Shown: positions 1,272 to 42,677 of the stretch, in pieces
How positions within the stretch are numbered: the stretch's first letter is position 1
How the letters are laid out: every line of letters begins with the position of its first letter
Translations under genes and position numbers: made by a program
Notes under the pieces: model-generated
Database searches by the model: none
Told to the model about the DNA's origin: nothing
Seen by the model: only the letters and a program-made list of their open reading frames with translations
Assembly (NCBI GenBank): GCA_022826805.1
Contig: JAJDUH010000045.1
Coordinates: 83,562-147,561, forward strand
Reading direction: 5' to 3'
Length of the DNA stretch: 64,000 bases
From: Candidatus Poribacteria bacterium
GTDB lineage: Bacteria; Poribacteria; WGA-4E; WGA-3G

Positions 1272-2276
1272 ATGAATAGACCACCAGAAGCCTTCGTTCA
1301 CGTAGATGAAGAACGACTTCTCAGCTTCTCTACCGCCTGCTTTGAGAAAGCAGGTATCACACACGAACACGCCGCCCTCATCAGTCGTCTACTCGTTAAT
1401 TCCGATTTACGAGGTGTCCGTAGTCACGGTACCCGAACGGTTAACGGATATTGCGCAGGCTTTGAAAACGGGAGCTTCAATCCCAACCCTGATATCCGTG
1501 TCATCCATGAAACGCCGACTGCCGTCGTACTTGATGGCAACGGCACACTCGGCTACCTTCCAATGGTCCGTGCCACGGAACACGCGATTACCAAAGCGAA
1601 AGCAGTGGGCATCGGAATGGGACTCGTTCGCTATATAGGACACTACGGCTCTGCCGGACACTATGCCCGTATATGTAATGAGGCAGATTGCATCGGCTTT
1701 TCAGTGCAAGGCTACCAGAATCAAGGCAATGCTGGGAACCAAGACCCGAAACCGCAACTCGGCTACTACGGCAACCCGCCCATCTGTTTCGCCATTCCTT
1801 CTGACGATGAACCGCCAGTCATCCTCGACGCAGCAACCTGTATCATGGCAGATTACCAACGCGGTCCTGATTTTGATGCCCTGCTTTCGGTCATTCCCGC
1901 AGCTTTCTTCAAGAGCATCGGATACACCGCTGTCGCGAGTCTGCTCGGTGGCGCACTGACCGGTTTCACTGAGCCACCGCCTGATGACACTGCAAAATGG
2001 AGTGGCGGCGGCATGGGCGGCATGGTGCTCGCTATAGACATCGAATCTGTCGTGCCATCTGCTGTTTTCCACGCAGAAGTCGACCGTATGGTCCGGGATG
2101 TCCGTGAGACTTACGAACCGATGCCGGGAACTGACAGAGCACTGCTACCGGGGGCGATTGAAACAGAACGCATAGAACAGCATCGCCGCTCGGGGATCCG
2201 CTATGGTGAAATGGAACAGGAATCCGCACGTGGCGTCAGTGAGCGATTAGGCGTGCCACTACCGTGGGATGAATAG
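1272..2276 (+). CDS. Ldh_2 family (malate/L-lactate/ureidoglycolate-type) oxidoreductase, paralog 1
   Basis: DLRGVRSHG, DGNGTLG, HYG, GNPPI and LPG motifs. Confidence 0.85.
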   Translation: MNRPPEAFVHVDEERLLSFSTACFEKAGITHEHAALISRLLVNSDLRGVRSHGTRTVNGYCAGFENGSFNPNPDIRVIHETPTAVVLDGNGTLGYLPMVRATEHAITKAKAVGIGMGLVRYIGHYGSAGHYARICNEADCIGFSVQGYQNQGNAGNQDPKPQLGYYGNPPICFAIPSDDEPPVILDAATCIMADYQRGPDFDALLSVIPAAFFKSIGYTAVASLLGGALTGFTEPPPDDTAKWSGGGMGGMVLAIDIESVVPSAVFHAEVDRMVRDVRETYEPMPGTDRALLPGAIETERIEQHRRSGIRYGEMEQESARGVSERLGVPLPWDE

Positions 2277-2306
2277 CCTCTTCACAACCAAGGATTAGGA
2301 AAAATC

Positions 2307-3308
2307 ATGAATAGACCACCAGAAACTTTTGTTTTAGTAAACGAAGAACGGCTTCTTAATTTCTCTACGGCTTGCTTTGAGAAAGCAGGTCTCACACACG
2401 ATCACGCCGCCCTCATCAGTCGCCTACTCGTTAATTCCGATTTACGAGGTGTCCGCAGTCACGGTACACGGACTGTTAATCGGTATTGTGCAGGTTTTGA
2501 AAACGGAAGTCTCAACCCACGCCCAAACATCCGCGCCATCCATGAAACGCCGACTACAGTTGTGCTTGATGGCAACGGTACGCTCGGCTACCTTCCAATG
2601 GTCCGTGCCACGGAACACGCCATCGCCAAAGCGAAAGAAATCGGCATCGGGATGGGACTCGTCCGTTATATCGGGCACTACGGCTCCGCGGGACACTATG
2701 CCCGTATGTGTAACGAAGCCGGATGCATTGGGTTTTCGGTACAGGGATCCCAGAATCACGGTAATGCCAGAAACCAAGATCCTAAACCCCAGATTGGTTA
2801 TTATGGTAATCCGCCTATCTGTTTTGCCATCCCTTCTGGTGACGAGCCACCGGTCGTGCTGGATGCCGCAACATGTATTATGGCAGATTACCAACGCGGC
2901 CCCGAATTCGATGCCCTGCTTTCAATGATACCGGCGGCTTTCTTCAAAAGTATCGGCTACACTGCTGTGGCACATCTGCTTGGCGGAGGACTGACCGGCT
3001 TCACCGAACCAGCACCCGAAGACACCGCAAAATGGAAACCTCCACAAGGCGGTATGGTCCTCGCAATAAATATTGAATCTGTTGTGCCACTTGATGTTTT
3101 TCACGCTGAAGTTGACCGTATGGTCCGGGATGTCCGCGAAACCTACGAACCGATGCCGGGAACTGACAGAGCACTGCTACCGGGGGCGATTGAAATGGAA
3201 CGCACAGAACAGCATCGCCGCTCGGGGATCCGCTATGGTGAAATGGAACAGGAATCCGCACGCGAAGTCAGTGAACGGTTAGGCGTGCCATTGCCATGGG
3301 ATGAATGA
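2307..3308 (+). CDS. Ldh_2 family oxidoreductase, paralog 2 (tandem duplicate)
   Basis: Same motifs; long stretches near-identical to 1272..2276. Confidence 0.85.
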   Translation: MNRPPETFVLVNEERLLNFSTACFEKAGLTHDHAALISRLLVNSDLRGVRSHGTRTVNRYCAGFENGSLNPRPNIRAIHETPTTVVLDGNGTLGYLPMVRATEHAIAKAKEIGIGMGLVRYIGHYGSAGHYARMCNEAGCIGFSVQGSQNHGNARNQDPKPQIGYYGNPPICFAIPSGDEPPVVLDAATCIMADYQRGPEFDALLSMIPAAFFKSIGYTAVAHLLGGGLTGFTEPAPEDTAKWKPPQGGMVLAINIESVVPLDVFHAEVDRMVRDVRETYEPMPGTDRALLPGAIEMERTEQHRRSGIRYGEMEQESAREVSERLGVPLPWDE

Positions 3309-3410
3309 TTTTCACACCGCCGTAGCGGAAAGGAAATCAAGAAAACAGATGAGATTTTTCTTGCCTTTTTTGGCAAAATGTTCCATAATTTTAGGAATTC
3401 TATTTAAATA

Positions 3411-3531
3411 TAGGACTTACGCAGTTCCGCTTAAAGTCCCCCTGATAAGGGGGATTTAGGGGGTTAAACACTCAAGGAACACCTTTTTTAATCAAATATA
3501 TCGCTTTTTTGCACATTTTGCGTAAGTCCTA
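3411..3531. mobile_element. MITE-like element with 13-bp terminal inverted repeats, containing a CCCCCTGATAAGGGGG palindrome
   Basis: TAGGACTTACGCA (3411-3423) ... TGCGTAAGTCCTA (3519-3531); homologous copy at 21148-21328. Confidence 0.7.
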
Positions 3532-3596
3532 TAAATGTTACAATATTGTCCAAACTTTAGGAGTCTTTAGTGAAAATAATTTAGGGAGTTTTTGAT

Positions 3597-6500
3597 ATGC
3601 AGAATAAGATTAAAACCAGCATTTTGTTTTACATGTTTACGTTGTTCCTGTGCCTCAATTGTTTTTTCGTGGAGAACACCGTCGCACAAGACAACGCTGA
3701 ATCCGCTGACGCACTCGCCAGTGCCAACTATACTTTTGAGACGATCGATGTTCCCGGGGTAGAGTTCTTACAGTTGAGTGCCAGTAGCGACTTTGGGGAT
3801 TACGCCGGCAGCACGCGGAGTGCTAATGGTGAAAAGATAGTTGCCTTTACGCTCATTGATGGCATTTTTACAACCTACGATTTCCCGGGTTCAAAGAACA
3901 CTTATTTCTTTGCGCTTGGTAATAATGGAGATGCTGCCGGACACTACGAGGATAGCGACGGTCTATTCCATGGGGTTGTCTTGAAAGATGGCGAGTTACA
4001 GCAATACGATTTCCCAGGTGCCGTCCAAACGGAACTATCGGGTATTAGTGACTCGACGGGCGCACTGACGGGTAATTTTATAGACGCTGCTGGTGTTCGC
4101 CGCGGATTCTCAGCAGACGAAATCATTGAGGCCCCTGGGGCAACGGAAACTTACGCCGATTTTGTGAATTCGAGCGGTGGTATGGTCGGTAGCTACGTAG
4201 ATGCTGAAGGCCTATTTCATCCTTATATCCGCACCCCGACCGGTCGGTTTGCATCTCTCGACCTTCCAAGCGCAGCAAATCTCGAATACTTTTTTGTGCA
4301 CGGCATCAACGATACAAGAGTTGTCGTTGCCCGAGCCAAACAGGTGGATGGTATCCCGGGCACCCTTGTCGGCACATTCCAAGAAGGGCTAAAGGAGTTG
4401 AAGGTTCCGGGCAGCGTTAGCACGGAGGGCTATAATATTAATCAGGACGGCTCTATCGTCGGACACTATGATTCAGCAGATGGGCGAAGGCACGGGTTCA
4501 TTGCCAGACCTATAACGGACACTGCTGCACCCATCAACGATCAACCCGTTGCCACACCTTCCGAACTCAACTATACATTTGAGAGCATTGACGTTCCAAG
4601 TGTAGATTTTTTAGCAGTGACGGCGAGTAGCGATTTTGAGGATTACGCAGGCTACACGCGGAGTGCTGATGGGGAAAAAGAGGCCGCCTTTACGCTCATT
4701 GACGGCATTTTTACAACCTATGATTTTCCCGACTCGCAAAAAACGCATTTTTATGCGCTCGGTAATAATGGACAGGCCGCCGGATACTACCAAGACAGCA
4801 ATGGCTTGTCCCACGGTATCGTCCTACAAGATGGCGAGTTGCGACAATACGATTTCCCAGGTGCTGTCGAAACGGAGATATACGGCATTAGTGATGCGAC
4901 GGGCGCGCTGACGGGTAATTTTATAGATGCTGCTGGCGTTCGCCGTGGATTCTCAGGAGACAAAATCGTTGAGGCGCCCGAGGCACTGGCAACTTATGCC
5001 GATTTTGTGAACGCCAGCGGTCGTATGGTGGGCAGCTACATAGACACTGAAGGCCTATATCATCCATACATGCGTCAACCAACCGGCAAGTTTATATCTC
5101 TTGACTTGCCAGGAGCAGGACAGTTTGAATACTTTTTTGTGCACGGTATCAACGACGTAGGGGTTCTTGTTAGCAGATCCAAAAGGATTGGTGGTGTCCC
5201 GCGCACCCATGTCGGCTCACTCCAGTACGGGCTACACGAATTTCAGTTCCCGGGCAGCGTCAGCACAGAAGGCTGGAATATTAATCAAGACGGCTCTGTC
5301 GTCGGACACTATACATCAGCGGATGGCAGAACACACGGATTTATCGCAAGGCCTGCAGAGGACACCACTCCACCAATCGACGATCCACCTGCTATCGCAC
5401 CCGCTAATGCCAGCTATACTTTTGAAACGATTGACGTTCCAGGTGTAGACTTTTTAGCGGTGACGGCAAGTAGCGACTTTGAGGACTACGCCGGCAACAC
5501 GCCAAGTGCGGATGGTGAAAAAATGGTTGGCTTTACACTCATTGATGGCGTTTTTACAACCTATGATTTCCCTGGGTCACAAGGCACTTATTTTTATGCG
5601 CTCGGTAATAATGGTGTCGCCGCCGGTCACTACCAGGATAGCGACGGTCTCTACCACGGCGTGCTCTTAGGAGAAGATGGAGAACTGCACCAATACGATT
5701 TTCCAGGTGCCGTCGAAACCCAAATCTTCGGTTATAGTGACGCCACTGGGAAACTAACAGGTAGTATGGTAGATGCTTCTGGCGTTCGCCGCGGATTCTC
5801 AGGGGAGACAATCGTTGAGTATCCCGGAGCATTGGAAACTTATGCCGATTTTGTAAGCGGATTAGGCAATATCGTGGGCAGCTACGTGGATGCTGCGGGC
5901 ACCTATCATGCATACCTGCGTGGCTCGGGGGGTAGTTTTGCAACGCTCGATCTTCCACTCGAAGGGGAGTTGGAATACTTTTTTCTCCACGGTCTCAACG
6001 ATGGACTGATTGCTGTTGGCAGAGGCAAAGCGGTGGGAGATGTCCCGCGCACTTATGTCGGCAACCCCCTCAACCTACAAGAATTGCGGGTTCCGGATAG
6101 TGCTGGCACGGAGGGTTGGAATATCAATCAAGACGGCTCTGTCGTTGGACACTATGACTCACCCGATGGACGCAGACACGGATTTATCGCCAAACCTATA
6201 GAGAGCACTGATCCAAGAACCAGCAATAGACGCATTGGCGCACCCGCCGGCTATACATTTGAGAGTATTGATGTTCCGGGTGTAGATTTTTTAGCAGTGA
6301 CGGCGAGTAGCGACTTTGAGGACTACGCCGGCAACACACAGAGTGCCGATGGTGAAAAAGAGGTCGCCTTTACGCTCATTGATGGCGTTTTTACAACCTA
6401 CGATTTCCCTGGGGCACAAGGCACGTATTTCTATGCGCTCGGTAATAATGGTGTCGCCGCCGGTCACTACAAGGATAGCGACGGTCTTTACCACGGTGTT

Positions 6501-39134: not shown

Positions 39135-40175
39135 GTGGAAAATCAAACCCCCAAATCAATGAGCAGTCGCGAACGTGTACTCGCCGCGCTTCACAATGAA
39201 CCTACTGACCGCACCCCGGTTTGTAATCCTACATCCGTTGCAACTGTTGAGCTGATGGACCTCGTCGATGCGCCCTTCCCACAAGCGAATCGAGAACCGG
39301 AACTCATGGCGCGCCTCGCTGCGACAGGATACACTGAACTCGGATTTGACACTATCATGCCAGTCTTCACGATTATCCAAGAATCAAGTGCACTCGGATG
39401 CCAGATTCAGTGGGAACAGAAAGACAACTGGCCGACCGTTCGGATGCGTGAACCGATTTGGGAAGACGTTGACGACATCACGATTCCGGACGATTTTTTG
39501 ACGCACCCGGATACCCAATGTGTACTTGAAGCGATTAAAATCCTGAAGAAGGAATACGGGGATGAAGTCGCTGTAATTGGGAAAACGATGGGACCTTGGT
39601 CGCTCGGCTATCACTGTTTCGGGGTCGAACCTTTTCTGTTGTTGTCCCTTGACGATCCCGGTAAAACGAAACTCGCTCTTGATCGGATGAAGGAAGCCAC
39701 CGTACAATTTGGTGTAGCACAGATCGAAGCGGGGGCAGATGCACTCACGCTTCCAGATCACGCTACAGGCGATTTGGTGAGTGGGGAATACTACGAACGT
39801 TACCTTCGGGATCTTCACATTGAATTTGTTGAGCGTATCCCTATCCCTTTGATTCTTCATATCTGTGGACGCACGATTGATAGGATGGAGTACATCGCGC
39901 AAACCGGTATGGCTGCCTTCCATTACGACTCCAAAAATGAGCCGCAGGAATCCATGGACATCGTGCAAAAACGCATTGCCCTTGTCGGAAACATTAACAA
40001 CCCTGAAACGCTGTTTGCCAAAGAACCAGAGCATGTTAAAGCGGAAGTTACGAAAAATCTTGACGCAGGCATTCCACTGATTGGACCGGAGTGCGCGATC
40101 CCCCTACAAACAACCATCGAAAACCTTCAAGCGATCCCTGAAGCTGTCCGAGAATGGCACCGCGCGAACGCATAA
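39135..40175 (+). CDS. MtaA/CmuA-family methylcobamide methyltransferase (URO-D superfamily)
   Basis: SSRERV, HICG Zn motif, GNI, PEC. Confidence 0.8.
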   Translation: MENQTPKSMSSRERVLAALHNEPTDRTPVCNPTSVATVELMDLVDAPFPQANREPELMARLAATGYTELGFDTIMPVFTIIQESSALGCQIQWEQKDNWPTVRMREPIWEDVDDITIPDDFLTHPDTQCVLEAIKILKKEYGDEVAVIGKTMGPWSLGYHCFGVEPFLLLSLDDPGKTKLALDRMKEATVQFGVAQIEAGADALTLPDHATGDLVSGEYYERYLRDLHIEFVERIPIPLILHICGRTIDRMEYIAQTGMAAFHYDSKNEPQESMDIVQKRIALVGNINNPETLFAKEPEHVKAEVTKNLDAGIPLIGPECAIPLQTTIENLQAIPEAVREWHRANA

Positions 40176-40195: not shown

Positions 40196-40804
40196 ATGAG
40201 ACAATTGATCTGTTTTTTGCTAATAGCAACGTTGACACTGACGTTCCTAACCTTCGGGCATACACAAAATGTGGACTTTGATCCGCTGAGTGCTTCTGAC
40301 GTCAACACTGATGGCGTTGTCAATATTCTCGACCTAACCTTCATCGCCTCCCGTTTTAGTGAAAACCTCACCATAGACCAACATCCGAACCCAGATGTTA
40401 ACGGGGACGGGACTGTGAATATCCTCGACTTAACACTGGTCGCAAGTTATTTAGGCAAAAGATCTGGGATTCCTTTTGAGGTCACGGACGCGAATTTTGA
40501 TGAGATCGTTTTGGGTTCTGAGCCGCCTATTGTTGTAGAATTTAAAGACGATACCTGAATATTTTGCATACGTATGCGACCGGTGGTCGCAGAGGTAGCA
40601 TTGGAATATCGCGAGAACTTCAGTTTCGTCAAGCTGGATGTGCGCACCCAACGGGAGAAAACGGCTGAATACCAAATTCGGGGAACGCCCACTTATATTG
40701 TATTTAAAGATGGCGCAGCTATAGGCGGATTTGCTGGGGCAATGCCTAAGGCTGAATTGGTACAGCGAATTCTTGAAATCTTAGGAACTGAAGAAAACGA
40801 GTAG
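40196..40804 (+). CDS. Putative exported selenoprotein: signal peptide, dockerin-like domain, thioredoxin with UxxC (TGA 40556-40558 read as Sec)
   Basis: ORFs 40154..40558 and 40574..40804 are in frame; join reads VVEFKDDT-TGA-IFCIRMRP; DVNTDGVVNILDL and DVNGDGTVNILDL; cis-Pro GTPT. Confidence 0.85.
40575..40591 (+). promoter_or_regulatory. Candidate bacterial SECIS hairpin 1
   Basis: TGCGACC-GGT-GGTCGCA begins after a 16-nt spacer from the TGA. Confidence 0.55.
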
Positions 40805-40841: not shown

Positions 40842-42677
40842 ATGAAAAAAATAATTTGCTTATTGCTAACGCTAAGTCTGACCCTACTACTCATGCCAGC
40901 AAGCTACGCTCAAGATACAAATCTTGACCTTCTGAGGGCATCGGATGTAAATGGTGATGGCGTGGTAAATATCCTTGATCTGACGCTTATTGCCTCGCGT
41001 TTCGGAGCAATACCCACCGAAAACCAGCGTTTAAATCCAGATGTAAACGCCGACGGCTTTGTCAACATCCTTGATTTGACACTCGTTGCCGGGCATTTGG
41101 GCAAAACCGTCCGTCCACCCGTTTCATTCGTTAGCGCAAATCCAGGAATCGATTCGCAGCTTGATGTGAACGCGACGATTACCTTGACCTTTGACGATAC
41201 ACCTGATGACGTTACCGCGAACACAGGGATTGTCATAATCACTGATGAGACTGTGACAATCACGGGGGCCTTCGATCCGGGTTCTCTCGCTTTGACGGTT
41301 ACCTGGGCAGATGGCACACAAACACTTAACTATACCATCAGGCAACCAGCGGCATTCGTTAGTGTCGATCCCGCAATCGGTTCGCAGCTTGAGACAGACA
41401 ATACTATTACGTTGACCTTTGATAATGCACCAGAGGACGTCACTGTGAGTACGGGTACTGCTACAATTACCGATAAGACCGTGGTAATCACAGGTCCATT
41501 TGATCCAGGTCTTCTCGTCTTGACCATCACTTGGAAGGATGGAACGCAAACGCTCAATTATACCGTCAGACAACCGGTGGCGTTTGTTAGAGCGAAACCA
41601 GCAGCTGGTGCAACGCTCACCATTGATGCCCCTATTACGCTGACCTTTGATAATGCACCAGAGGACGTCACTGTGAGTACGGGTACTGCTACAATTACCG
41701 ATAAGACCGTGGTAATCACAGGTCCATTTGACCCAGGTCTTCTCGCCTTGACTATCACTTGGAAAGACGGAACGCAAACGCTCAACTATACCGTCAGACA
41801 ACCGGTGGCATTCGTTAGGGCAAATCCAACAAGTGGTGCGGAACTTGATGTAGGCGATACCATTACCCTTACCTTTGATAACCGCCCAAACAATGTTACA
41901 GTGAGCACTGGAAATGTTAGAATCACTGGCAGGAATGTGAGAATTACAGGTCCCTTTGATCCGGGTTCCCTCTCACTGACTATCACTTGGGCGGATGGGA
42001 GCAAAAGACTCAATTATACTGTCCGGACACCAGACACCGAAGCACCTCGAATTACGGGGAGAACCGTCAGCGACGGTGACAAAGACGTTGATCCCGATAC
42101 GATTAACACCAGAGCACGCATCGAAGTTGAGTTCAGCGAAGAGGTAACCGGCAATATTGTTCTACGAACTGAAGCAGGTGTCAATGCCGGTTGGCGTGGA
42201 CAAGTTGAAGGCAAGAAAGCCACCCTTGAACTGGTCAGAGGTAGAGAACTTGATAACGCGACCACCTACGTTATTGCTGGGAAAGTTAGCGATGCCGCTG
42301 GTAACGAAACCGATCTCAAGATTACCTTCACGACTGAGAGCAAGACCTCTGGTGTCCCCTTTGCGGTTACCGATGCGACTTTTAATTCGCTCGTTCTCCA
42401 ATCAGAAGTACCTGTCGTGGTCGAGTTTTGGAAAGATGGGTGACCATTCTGTCGAAGAATGGTGACAGTTGTCGCCGAAGCTGCCTCAGAGAAGCGAGAC
42501 ACATTTGCCGTCGCGAAAATGAATATTGCCCAGAGTCGGCAAACGCATCAAAAATATCGGGTTATAGGACATCCAACTTATATCGTGTTCCAAGATGGAA
42601 AGGTTGTCGGTCGTTTTGGAGGCGTGATCCCGAAACAGCAGCTGGTTAATAATATTCTTAATGCGATAAATAATTGA
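40842..42677 (+). CDS. Putative exported selenoprotein: signal peptide, dockerin-like domain, 4 x 76-aa Ig-like repeats, Big_5-like domain, thioredoxin with UxxC (TGA 42441-42443)
   Basis: ORFs 40842..42443 and 42459..42677 are in frame; join reads VVEFWKDG-TGA-PFCRRMV; cis-Pro GHPT. Confidence 0.85.
42461..42476 (+). promoter_or_regulatory. Candidate bacterial SECIS hairpin 2
   Basis: GGTGAC-AGTT-GTCGCC (one G-U pair) begins after a 17-nt spacer from the TGA. Confidence 0.5.

Follow-up and report, generated by a model that had tools for sequence, protein, structure and literature searches.

The present analysis concerns gene 1, a predicted selenoprotein gene at positions 40196-40804 (forward strand, TGA translated as U) of a 64,000-nt stretch of DNA, referred to as the window, from a Candidatus Poribacteria bacterium (assembly GCA_022826805.1, contig JAJDUH010000045.1). 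The genome holding the window (labelled G000) comprises 80 contigs and 5.09 Mb, with 47% G+C. An earlier note on this DNA had described the locus as a dockerin-thioredoxin of 202 amino acids (aa) with a T-U-I-F-C motif, a description that is borne out by the read-through translation and by Pfam. The features of the locus are as follows (SECIS: selenocysteine insertion sequence; AF2: AlphaFold2).

40196-40804, forward strand: gene 1, predicted selenoprotein precursor of 202 aa with signal peptide, dockerin and thioredoxin domain (read-through translation, Pfam, orthologue alignment)
40196-40267, forward strand: probable Sec-type signal peptide, about residues 1-24 (MRQ, hydrophobic core, G-H-T-Q; sequence inspection, orthologues, AF2)
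40295-40453, forward strand: type I dockerin, residues 34-86, two Ca-binding repeats (PF00404, 71.2 bits)
40478-40771, forward strand: thioredoxin domain, residues 95-192 (PF00085, 71.9 bits; AF2, Foldseek)
40556-40558, forward strand: in-frame TGA, predicted selenocysteine 121, which opens the U-I-F-C redox motif (translation, phmmer, conservation, independent contigs)
40565-40567, forward strand: Cys124 of U-I-F-C (translation)
40575-40591, forward strand: candidate bacterial SECIS core, U-GCGACC-GGU-GGUCGC-A (fold energy, covariation)

Reading frame and start

The frame runs from the ATG at 40196 to the TAG at 40802-40804 and encodes 202 residues, with a single TGA (U121) inside the stretch GAT ACC TGA ATA TTT TGC (40550-40567). 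With translation table 11 the same region is split into an open reading frame (ORF) of 134 aa that ends at the TGA and another of 76 aa that begins at the ATG at 40574. The read-through product holds the elements EVTDANFDEIVL, IVVEF, UIFC, KLDV and YQIRGTPTYIVFKDG. The start was placed at 40196 and not at the upstream ATG at 40154, because the conserved N-terminus of the aligned orthologues opens at MRQL/MKKI and because the upstream alternative would overlap the preceding URO-D gene. The hydrophobic N-terminus reads MRQLICFLLIATLTLTFLTFGHTQ, and the orthologues retain ...[GS]Y[AT]Q ahead of the dockerin. In the AF2 model a helix covers residues 2-19 and is followed by a low-confidence linker.

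Thioredoxin domain and active site

The read-through protein matches PF00085 with 71.9 bits (gathering threshold 23.5) over residues 95-192. Profile positions 4-101 of 103 are covered, so that the match spans the TGA. When the fragments are taken separately, the one upstream of the TGA matches the dockerin profile only, while the 76-aa fragment downstream is limited to PF00085 positions 36-101, the last two thirds of the profile (44.9 bits). The match thus crosses the TGA in the read-through protein alone, and a full thioredoxin domain is restored there, as had been proposed. In phmmer alignments against the Protein Data Bank (PDB) the TGA column stands opposite the first Cys of C-G-P-C in both 2yj7 and 2cvk, and the misalignment with the catalytic Cys that would have spoken against the earlier note did not occur. 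From the alignment with 2yj7 (vvefkddt-C-if-C-irmrpv in gene 1, lvdfwapw-C-gp-C-rmiapi in the structure) it follows that the TGA occupies the position of the first, nucleophilic Cys. Two further positions can be assigned in the same way: E115 aligns with the buried Asp of V-D-F-W in solved thioredoxins, and T-P-T with the I-P-T of their cis-Pro loop.

The replacement of the usual Trp before the motif and of the Gly-Pro within it, also pointed out beforehand, is confirmed by the T-U-I-F-C read in the sequence; the unusual redox properties that the earlier note had suggested on this ground are conceivable. Their absence is a trait of the whole dockerin-thioredoxin family and is not specific to the selenocysteine (Sec) forms, because the Cys homologues carry the same dipeptides (C-I-F-C, C-I-Y-C, C-P-F-C).

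The AF2 model, for which 21 Cys homologues were aligned, reaches a mean predicted local distance difference test (pLDDT) score of 88.7 and a predicted template modelling (TM) score of 0.78. Its elements follow the order beta-alpha-beta-alpha-beta-alpha-beta-beta-alpha, as in thioredoxin. Residue 121 lies directly before the helix 122-137, at its N-terminus. In the PDB, Foldseek finds thioredoxins at a TM score (target) of 0.93 and a root-mean-square deviation of 1.0 A over about 104 columns, and a DsbA-type insertion is absent from the fold. A model computed from the single sequence was poor (pLDDT 45.3) and was discarded.

With 64.8 bits, gene 1 remains under the cut-off of the TrxA equivalog TIGR01068 (96.8); by hidden Markov model and fold it is a thioredoxin-family domain and not a TrxA orthologue. 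The TrxA of the same genome is found on contig C63 (TIGR01068, 114.8 bits). The gene 1 protein (P0001) also matches PF13098 with 44.1 bits. None of the selenoprotein-specific NCBIfam models (HUIPC-motif, SaoT, TsoB, PDO_seleno_TRX) is matched above its curated cut-off, the scores being 17.6 bits for TsoB (cut-off 805) and 18.5 for PDO_seleno_TRX (cut-off 185), and no other NCBIfam model named for selenoproteins matches gene 1 at E <= 0.01.

Conservation, selection and sequencing accuracy

The read-through protein was used to search 40 related genomes, 24 of the same genus and 16 from other families of the order. A full-length orthologue with 61-76% identity and exactly one TGA, in the identical column, is present in 21 of the 24 congeners. 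The remaining three each differ. G011 (locus L028) has TGC at this column, within S-E-F-C-G-F-C. In G009 (L037, G009:C3:14898-15290) the TGA is kept and the frame is broken five codons later. The sole match in G020 (84% complete) is gene-2-like, i.e. similar to the tandem paralogue described below, and lies at a contig end. Of the 24 rows aligned, 23 have the TGA in this column, namely those of the window, of the 21 intact relatives and of the broken copy, and the remaining row has Cys. Such a recurrence is far beyond chance. As to the broken copy, the C-terminal residues 123-202 find a counterpart, with 68% identity, on a different contig of G009 (G009:C79:69966-70205); the split reflects either a rearrangement or an assembly join.

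Among the matches listed for the 16 non-congeneric genomes there are only TrxA-like proteins, with about 35-44% identity in the thioredoxin part alone; 1706 weaker matches lie outside that list. When 79 Poribacteria loci, in part from the congeneric genomes, were scanned for the pattern, 43 matches were obtained: gene-1-type sequences with TGA (29) or TGT (one, L061), gene-2-type sequences with TGA (12), and one non-dockerin CPFC protein (L079).

The ratio of nonsynonymous to synonymous substitution rates (dN/dS) was calculated by the Nei-Gojobori method for 23 orthologues (253 pairs; L037 and L038 excluded). The median is 0.143 over the 75 codons after the TGA (233 usable pairs) and 0.095 over the 33 codons before it (244 usable pairs), and the block after the TGA contains no further stop in any of the 23 sequences. 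Purifying selection acts downstream of the TGA.

Four runs from four studies, none of them the possible source sample, each have one Logan contig that covers 40556-40558, and TGA is present in all four contigs. They differ from the window at 9-12 positions each, none of which falls on the TGA. Contigs lose rare variants, and the comparison accordingly concerns the majority base. The TGC or TGT that the earlier note had named as evidence to the contrary was not seen in these independent runs.

Cysteine homologues and database annotation

A protein search of 5.8 billion sequences gave 437 matches at E <= 1e-5 among 707 candidates, and the best 120 clusters were inspected. Full-length dockerin-thioredoxins of 179-221 aa with Cys at the U121 column account for 33 of these. 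Their motifs are CPFC (9), CFYC (7), CIYC (6), CGFC (5) and CIFC (2), with CAFC, CGWC, CLFC and CGYC occurring once each. Another 85 stop exactly at the residue preceding the TGA, 56 with VVEFKDDT as their last residues, and the other two are fragments of a different kind. The U121 column is Cys in all 33 full-length homologues as well as in L028 and L061. Sec and Cys counterparts with shared dipeptides can be paired: UIFC/CIFC, UIYC/CIYC and UPFC/CPFC.

In a quick maximum-likelihood tree of 85 distinct rows (101 before collapse; 52 Sec, 33 Cys) the Sec and Cys states are interleaved. At least six changes are needed, two of which are forced by well-supported branches, and the Cys form L028 is nested in an otherwise Sec clade. 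No direction of change is claimed, because the tree is a quick one with an arbitrary root. Replacement of Sec by Cys was called rare in bacteria in a 2026 review (PMC13188914).

Selenocysteine machinery and use of TGA in the genome

The genome encodes SelA (PF03841, 517.8 bits), SelB (PF09107, 69.6 bits, on contig C61) and SelD (TIGR00476, 360.7 bits), the last with one in-frame TGA in the usual G-U-A-S-K context. A tRNA-SeC with anticodon tca was located by aragorn at C61:22923-23016, about 150 nt downstream of SelB. Among the stop-to-stop frames of at least 400 codons (n = 1334), the stops are TAA in 664, TAG in 422 and TGA in 248. TGA thus has not been globally reassigned, and it also serves as gene 2's own terminator (42675-42677).

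Further TGA-containing genes can be observed in the genome. SelD itself is a candidate selenoprotein (G000:C45:41287-42210, reverse strand, locus L005). In a third thioredoxin-fold gene with TGA (G000:C48:5941-6228, reverse strand, L013) the motif reads D-W-U-G-F-C; its 320-aa frame matches Thioredoxin_7/Thioredoxin_2 and also has TPR repeats and a segment of membrane or signal type. Six of the 11 AhpC/TSA (peroxiredoxin-family) matches contain exactly one in-frame TGA each (C62:46154-46525, C62:45707-46075, C38:31941-32315, C75:22732-23097, C24:117910-118296 and C74:17504-17842). The organism appears to have a large thioredoxin-fold selenoproteome.

A candidate SECIS hairpin

The apical loop of the hairpin at 40575-40591, which opens with G, begins 23 nt past the UGA. 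The 65 nt from the UGA onwards fold with -18.9 kcal/mol, compared with -13.3 +/- 2.3 for shuffled sequences (z -2.49; 3 of 200 as stable), and the hairpin alone with -12.3 kcal/mol in a local fold. Published constraints for bacterial SECIS elements are a loop of 3-9 nt, a G in the first two loop positions, a spacing of 16-37 nt and a minimum free energy <= -7.5 (PMC13188914, Fig. 2 legend), and the gene 1 hairpin has all of these properties.

In an alignment of 30 sequences (26 distinct), pair 22/34 occurs as CG, AU and GU, and pair 23/33 as GC, AU and CG. Nine cells are changed on both sides, and none of 500 shuffles matches the covariation score. Paired cells amount to 86.3%, versus at most 62.1% with the 3' arm slid. 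Since related sequences can outscore shuffles even without structure, the covariation support is rated good but not conclusive. Among the Sec forms, the synonymous sites within the hairpin (GTG, GTC) vary little or not at all. The invariant loop codon GTG is replaced by ATT or ACC in L028 and L061, the two gene-1-type Cys forms with known DNA sequence. A search of the whole window with Rfam at gathering thresholds gave no match, so that no curated SECIS family applies.

Hairpins are likewise found after the UGA of SelD (GGCUCC-AGG-GGAGCU, with an A-G-G loop 17 nt past the UGA) and of L013 on contig C48 (U-G-G-A-U loop, 16 nt past the UGA).

Dockerin, cohesins and redox partners

The Dockerin_1 match of gene 1 (PF00404) scores 71.2 bits against a cut-off of 22.9, and its two 12-residue Ca-binding loops are DVNTDGVVNILD and DVNGDGTVNILD; a linker leads from the dockerin to the thioredoxin domain. 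Genome-wide, 34 dockerin and 7 cohesin matches lie above the cut-off. Five of the seven cohesin frames also hold a dockerin, the cohesin-only ones being a secreted protein on C64 and a large protein on C8; no scaffoldin with multiple cohesins was seen in the genome. Structure prediction for a complex of dockerin residues 25-92 with the C64 cohesin and two Ca gave a score of 0.13 (mark 0.32), which speaks neither for nor against binding. A complete DsbD homologue with DsbD_N, DsbD_TM and thioredoxin domain is encoded on C57. Because cohesins, dockerins and the DsbD homologue are all present, a docked and exported oxidoreductase with a possible electron supply would be plausible.

The product of locus L124 (G000:C8:251000-256500; ORF 1788-5501, reverse strand), a large protein at least 1237 aa long, combines a proline run and leucine-rich repeats with a cohesin, and the tail at its C-terminus presumably resembles a type IX secretion sorting domain. 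It could serve to anchor dockerin proteins at the surface.

Gene 2, a tandem paralogue

Gene 1 is followed by a longer paralogue of the same design. Its features are:

40842-42677, forward strand: gene 2, tandem paralogue of 611 aa, with its own stop TGA at 42675-42677 (translation, Pfam)
42441-42443, forward strand: in-frame TGA in W-K-D-G-U-P-F-C (translation)
42461-42476, forward strand: candidate SECIS hairpin GGUGAC-AGUU-GUCGCC (local fold, conservation)

Gene 2 consists of a signal peptide, a dockerin, four repeats of about 76 aa, a Big_5 domain and a thioredoxin domain. The in-frame TGA is preserved at twelve loci of other genomes, and the stop at 42675-42677 is directly followed by another TGA. 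In the candidate hairpin the loop also begins 23 nt past the UGA, and the local fold has -9.2 kcal/mol. A second hairpin of 7-8 bp (CCAUUCU...AGAAUGG) occupies 42444-42462, begins 3 nt after the Sec UGA and is kept in 13 sequences through third-position wobble changes. The repeats (within 40842-42443) follow the pattern ...ITLTFDNAPEDVTVSTGTATITDKTVVITGPFDPG.L.LTITW.DGTQTLNYTVRQP...; two of them are nearly identical, and they match CopC and DUF7015 weakly.

Proposed mechanism and alternative explanations

The TGA column, the Sec machinery, conservation, selection, the independent contigs, the Cys homologues and the hairpin all agree, and for this reason gene 1 is very probably a single gene that is decoded through its UGA as Sec. 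At UGA121 the in-gene hairpin (40575-40591) would recruit SelB carrying Sec-tRNA(Sec), and Sec would be inserted in place of termination. Judging from its domain families, the 202-aa precursor would then be exported via the N-terminal signal peptide, and the Ca-binding type I dockerin would attach to a cohesin-bearing protein of the same genome. By homology, the thioredoxin fold would perform thiol-disulfide exchange, in which the selenolate of Sec121 attacks as the nucleophile and the mixed selenenylsulfide is then resolved by Cys124. If the product stays periplasmic, it could be recycled by the DsbD homologue. Surface docking and reductase activity are far less certain than Sec decoding.

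For the product, predicted to be secreted, a role as extracytoplasmic disulfide reductase or isomerase is favoured, because a DsbA-type insertion is absent and because the cis-Pro loop (T-P-T) and a buried acidic residue (E115) are present. The alternative that survives best accepts the selenoprotein and alters its role: it would be a periplasmic oxidase or peroxide scavenger, and the dockerin a general Ca-dependent interaction or stability module. This reading is possible, if on the doubtful side. It would fit an active-site dipeptide that differs from the Gly-Pro of reductases, and cohesin proteins that mostly carry a dockerin of their own, as is also seen in non-cellulosomal systems without a known role. 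The six peroxiredoxin-family genes with an in-frame TGA, out of 11, suggest a broad selenium-based antioxidant strategy as well. The lack of a DsbA-like insertion, the retention of the buried acidic residue and cis-Pro of reducing thioredoxins, and the DsbD homologue available as electron source speak against it, none of them decisively.

With regard to decoding, two further alternatives are each very unlikely. In the first, the locus would yield two products, a 120-aa dockerin and a separate 76-aa thioredoxin remnant from the ATG at 40574, or the truncated form would be the main product and read-through incidental. The ATG, 18 nt past the TGA, is indeed invariant. In every bacterial selenoprotein gene the insertion of Sec has to compete with termination, so that a scarcity of selenium is likely to leave some of the product truncated. 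However, the 76-aa piece would be devoid of strand 1, helix 1, strand 2 and the redox motif; the five codons between TGA and ATG, the resolving Cys included, are conserved; a Met at that position is normal for thioredoxins (C-G-P-C-R/K-M in the aligned structures); and the Cys homologues are single continuous proteins.

In the second, the UGA would be read as Trp, Cys or Gly by near-cognate or reassigned decoding. UGA is known to be reassigned in some uncultivated bacteria, and Sec in the gene 1 protein is deduced from sequence and not from a selenium measurement. This explanation is contradicted by the use of TGA as terminator in long frames (248 of 1334) and in gene 2, by the complete Sec pathway in the genome, by homologues that show Cys at the column and not Trp or Gly, and by a conserved, covarying hairpin at SECIS distance. 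A pseudogene, or a Cys-thioredoxin gene misread in sequencing or assembly, is close to refuted, for while a lone in-frame stop resembles a nonsense mutation and gene callers agree with it (the 85 of 120 best clusters that stop there), the TGA column is shared by 21 of 24 congeners at 61-76% identity, coincides exactly with the catalytic Cys, is confirmed by contigs of four other studies and is followed by a stop-free block with a dN/dS of 0.14.

Sec decoding of gene 1 followed by export, docking and disulfide reduction thus remains the preferred reading, and several points weigh against it. The hairpin is conserved in the 22 closest sequences, and these contain no compensatory pairs; the covariation signal was seen only once more distant loci were added, and few lineages carry it. 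A large sub-clade (the M-K-P-V-V-T forms) has two internal stem mismatches. In gene 2, 87% of the cells of the candidate hairpin are paired in 13 sequences with no compensatory change, and the competing hairpin at 42444-42462 is conserved and is preferred by RNAalifold. The run search listed no RNA sequencing runs containing gene 1. The neighbouring genes (RuvC, the URO-D family gene, BatA/VWA), syntenic in many relatives, give no functional hint. The incorporation of selenium and the secretion are both predicted from sequence, the binding of a cohesin is deduced from domain families, and the direction of the thiol-disulfide reaction is guessed.

Relation to known systems

Thioredoxins with UxxC (PF00085) are listed among the experimentally verified prokaryotic selenoproteins (table in PMC13188914). 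Gene 1 resembles the verified thioredoxin selenoprotein in its PF00085 domain, in the predicted Sec at the first Cys of CxxC, in an in-gene hairpin after the UGA and in the existence of Cys homologues. The verified protein is probably that of Treponema denticola. In contrast to the verified proteins, which are small and cytoplasmic, gene 1 has a predicted signal peptide and a dockerin, and it has neither the Trp before the motif nor the Gly-Pro within it. UxxC selenoproteins of the thioredoxin family had been described before; the novel features of gene 1 are the dockerin as a tether, the predicted export signal and the absence of Trp and Gly-Pro.

Predicted exported selenoproteins with a thioredoxin fold comprise PF13098 thiol:disulfide interchange, DsbA-like, DsbG-like and TlpA-like UxxC/UGC proteins (PMC13188914). 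Gene 1 shares with these the predicted export and the Sec in the redox motif; it differs by its dockerin, which is absent from the descriptions of them considered here. The Cys dockerin-thioredoxins of Poribacteria and related metagenomes (e.g. P0003-P0006, P0009-P0023, P0042-P0060) have the architecture of gene 1 at 48-78% identity, with Cys for Sec; one of them is named 'thioredoxin 1' and the rest are unnamed. Cohesin-dockerin systems (PF00404), cellulosomal or non-cellulosomal, offer the same dockerin repeats, with cohesins in the same genome as gene 1, but their cargo is a glycoside hydrolase, whereas that of gene 1 is a predicted redox selenoenzyme.

Among titles and abstract openings, no literature was found that joins selenoproteins with dockerins, although survey supplements may list such genes as 'Trx'. 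For Poribacteria selenoproteins only NiFeSe hydrogenases were found, and survey supplements may hold more; for Poribacteria and dockerin, judged by title, the only find was a study of salt-lake microbial diversity. Gene 1 would thereby link Sec recoding to cohesin-dockerin anchoring, two subjects that were unconnected in the literature searched. It can tentatively be suggested that genes 1 and 2 are the first known selenoenzymes displayed extracellularly on a cohesin-dockerin scaffold, where they would reduce or reshuffle disulfides of the sponge matrix or of secreted proteins. If this is true, the use of a selenolate would be of consequence since, unlike a thiolate, it resists irreversible over-oxidation in oxygenated seawater. 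The family would moreover show, as a natural experiment, how Sec and Cys replace each other repeatedly while in-gene SECIS elements are gained or decay, possibly with Sec-to-Cys reversions among the changes. The locus suggests a selenium-based redox chemistry outside the cytoplasm of Poribacteria symbionts.

The close Sec/Cys pairs with identical dipeptides form a natural series for studying what Sec contributes to a thioredoxin and how a coding-region SECIS arises and decays. Gene callers treat the Sec codon as a stop, and for this reason at least 85 clusters in the databases are stored as 'hypothetical' dockerin stubs of about 120 aa. As a consequence, the gene family and its paralogue are invisible in the annotations of a major phylum of sponge symbionts.

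Genomic neighbourhood

A URO-D family gene lies upstream at 43 of 60 loci, and BatA/VWA downstream on the opposite strand, likewise at 43 of 60. In some congeners an extra thioredoxin-domain gene without TGA (257-261-aa frames) sits just upstream of gene 1 (L030, G004:C1:4774266-4774598; similarly in G006, G018 and G024); it is absent at that position in the window genome. The URO-D family gene of the window (39135-40175, forward strand) shows 89-97% protein identity across relatives, compared with about 60-76% for gene 1 in the congeners, and because of this lower identity gene 1 is seen to evolve much faster than its neighbour.

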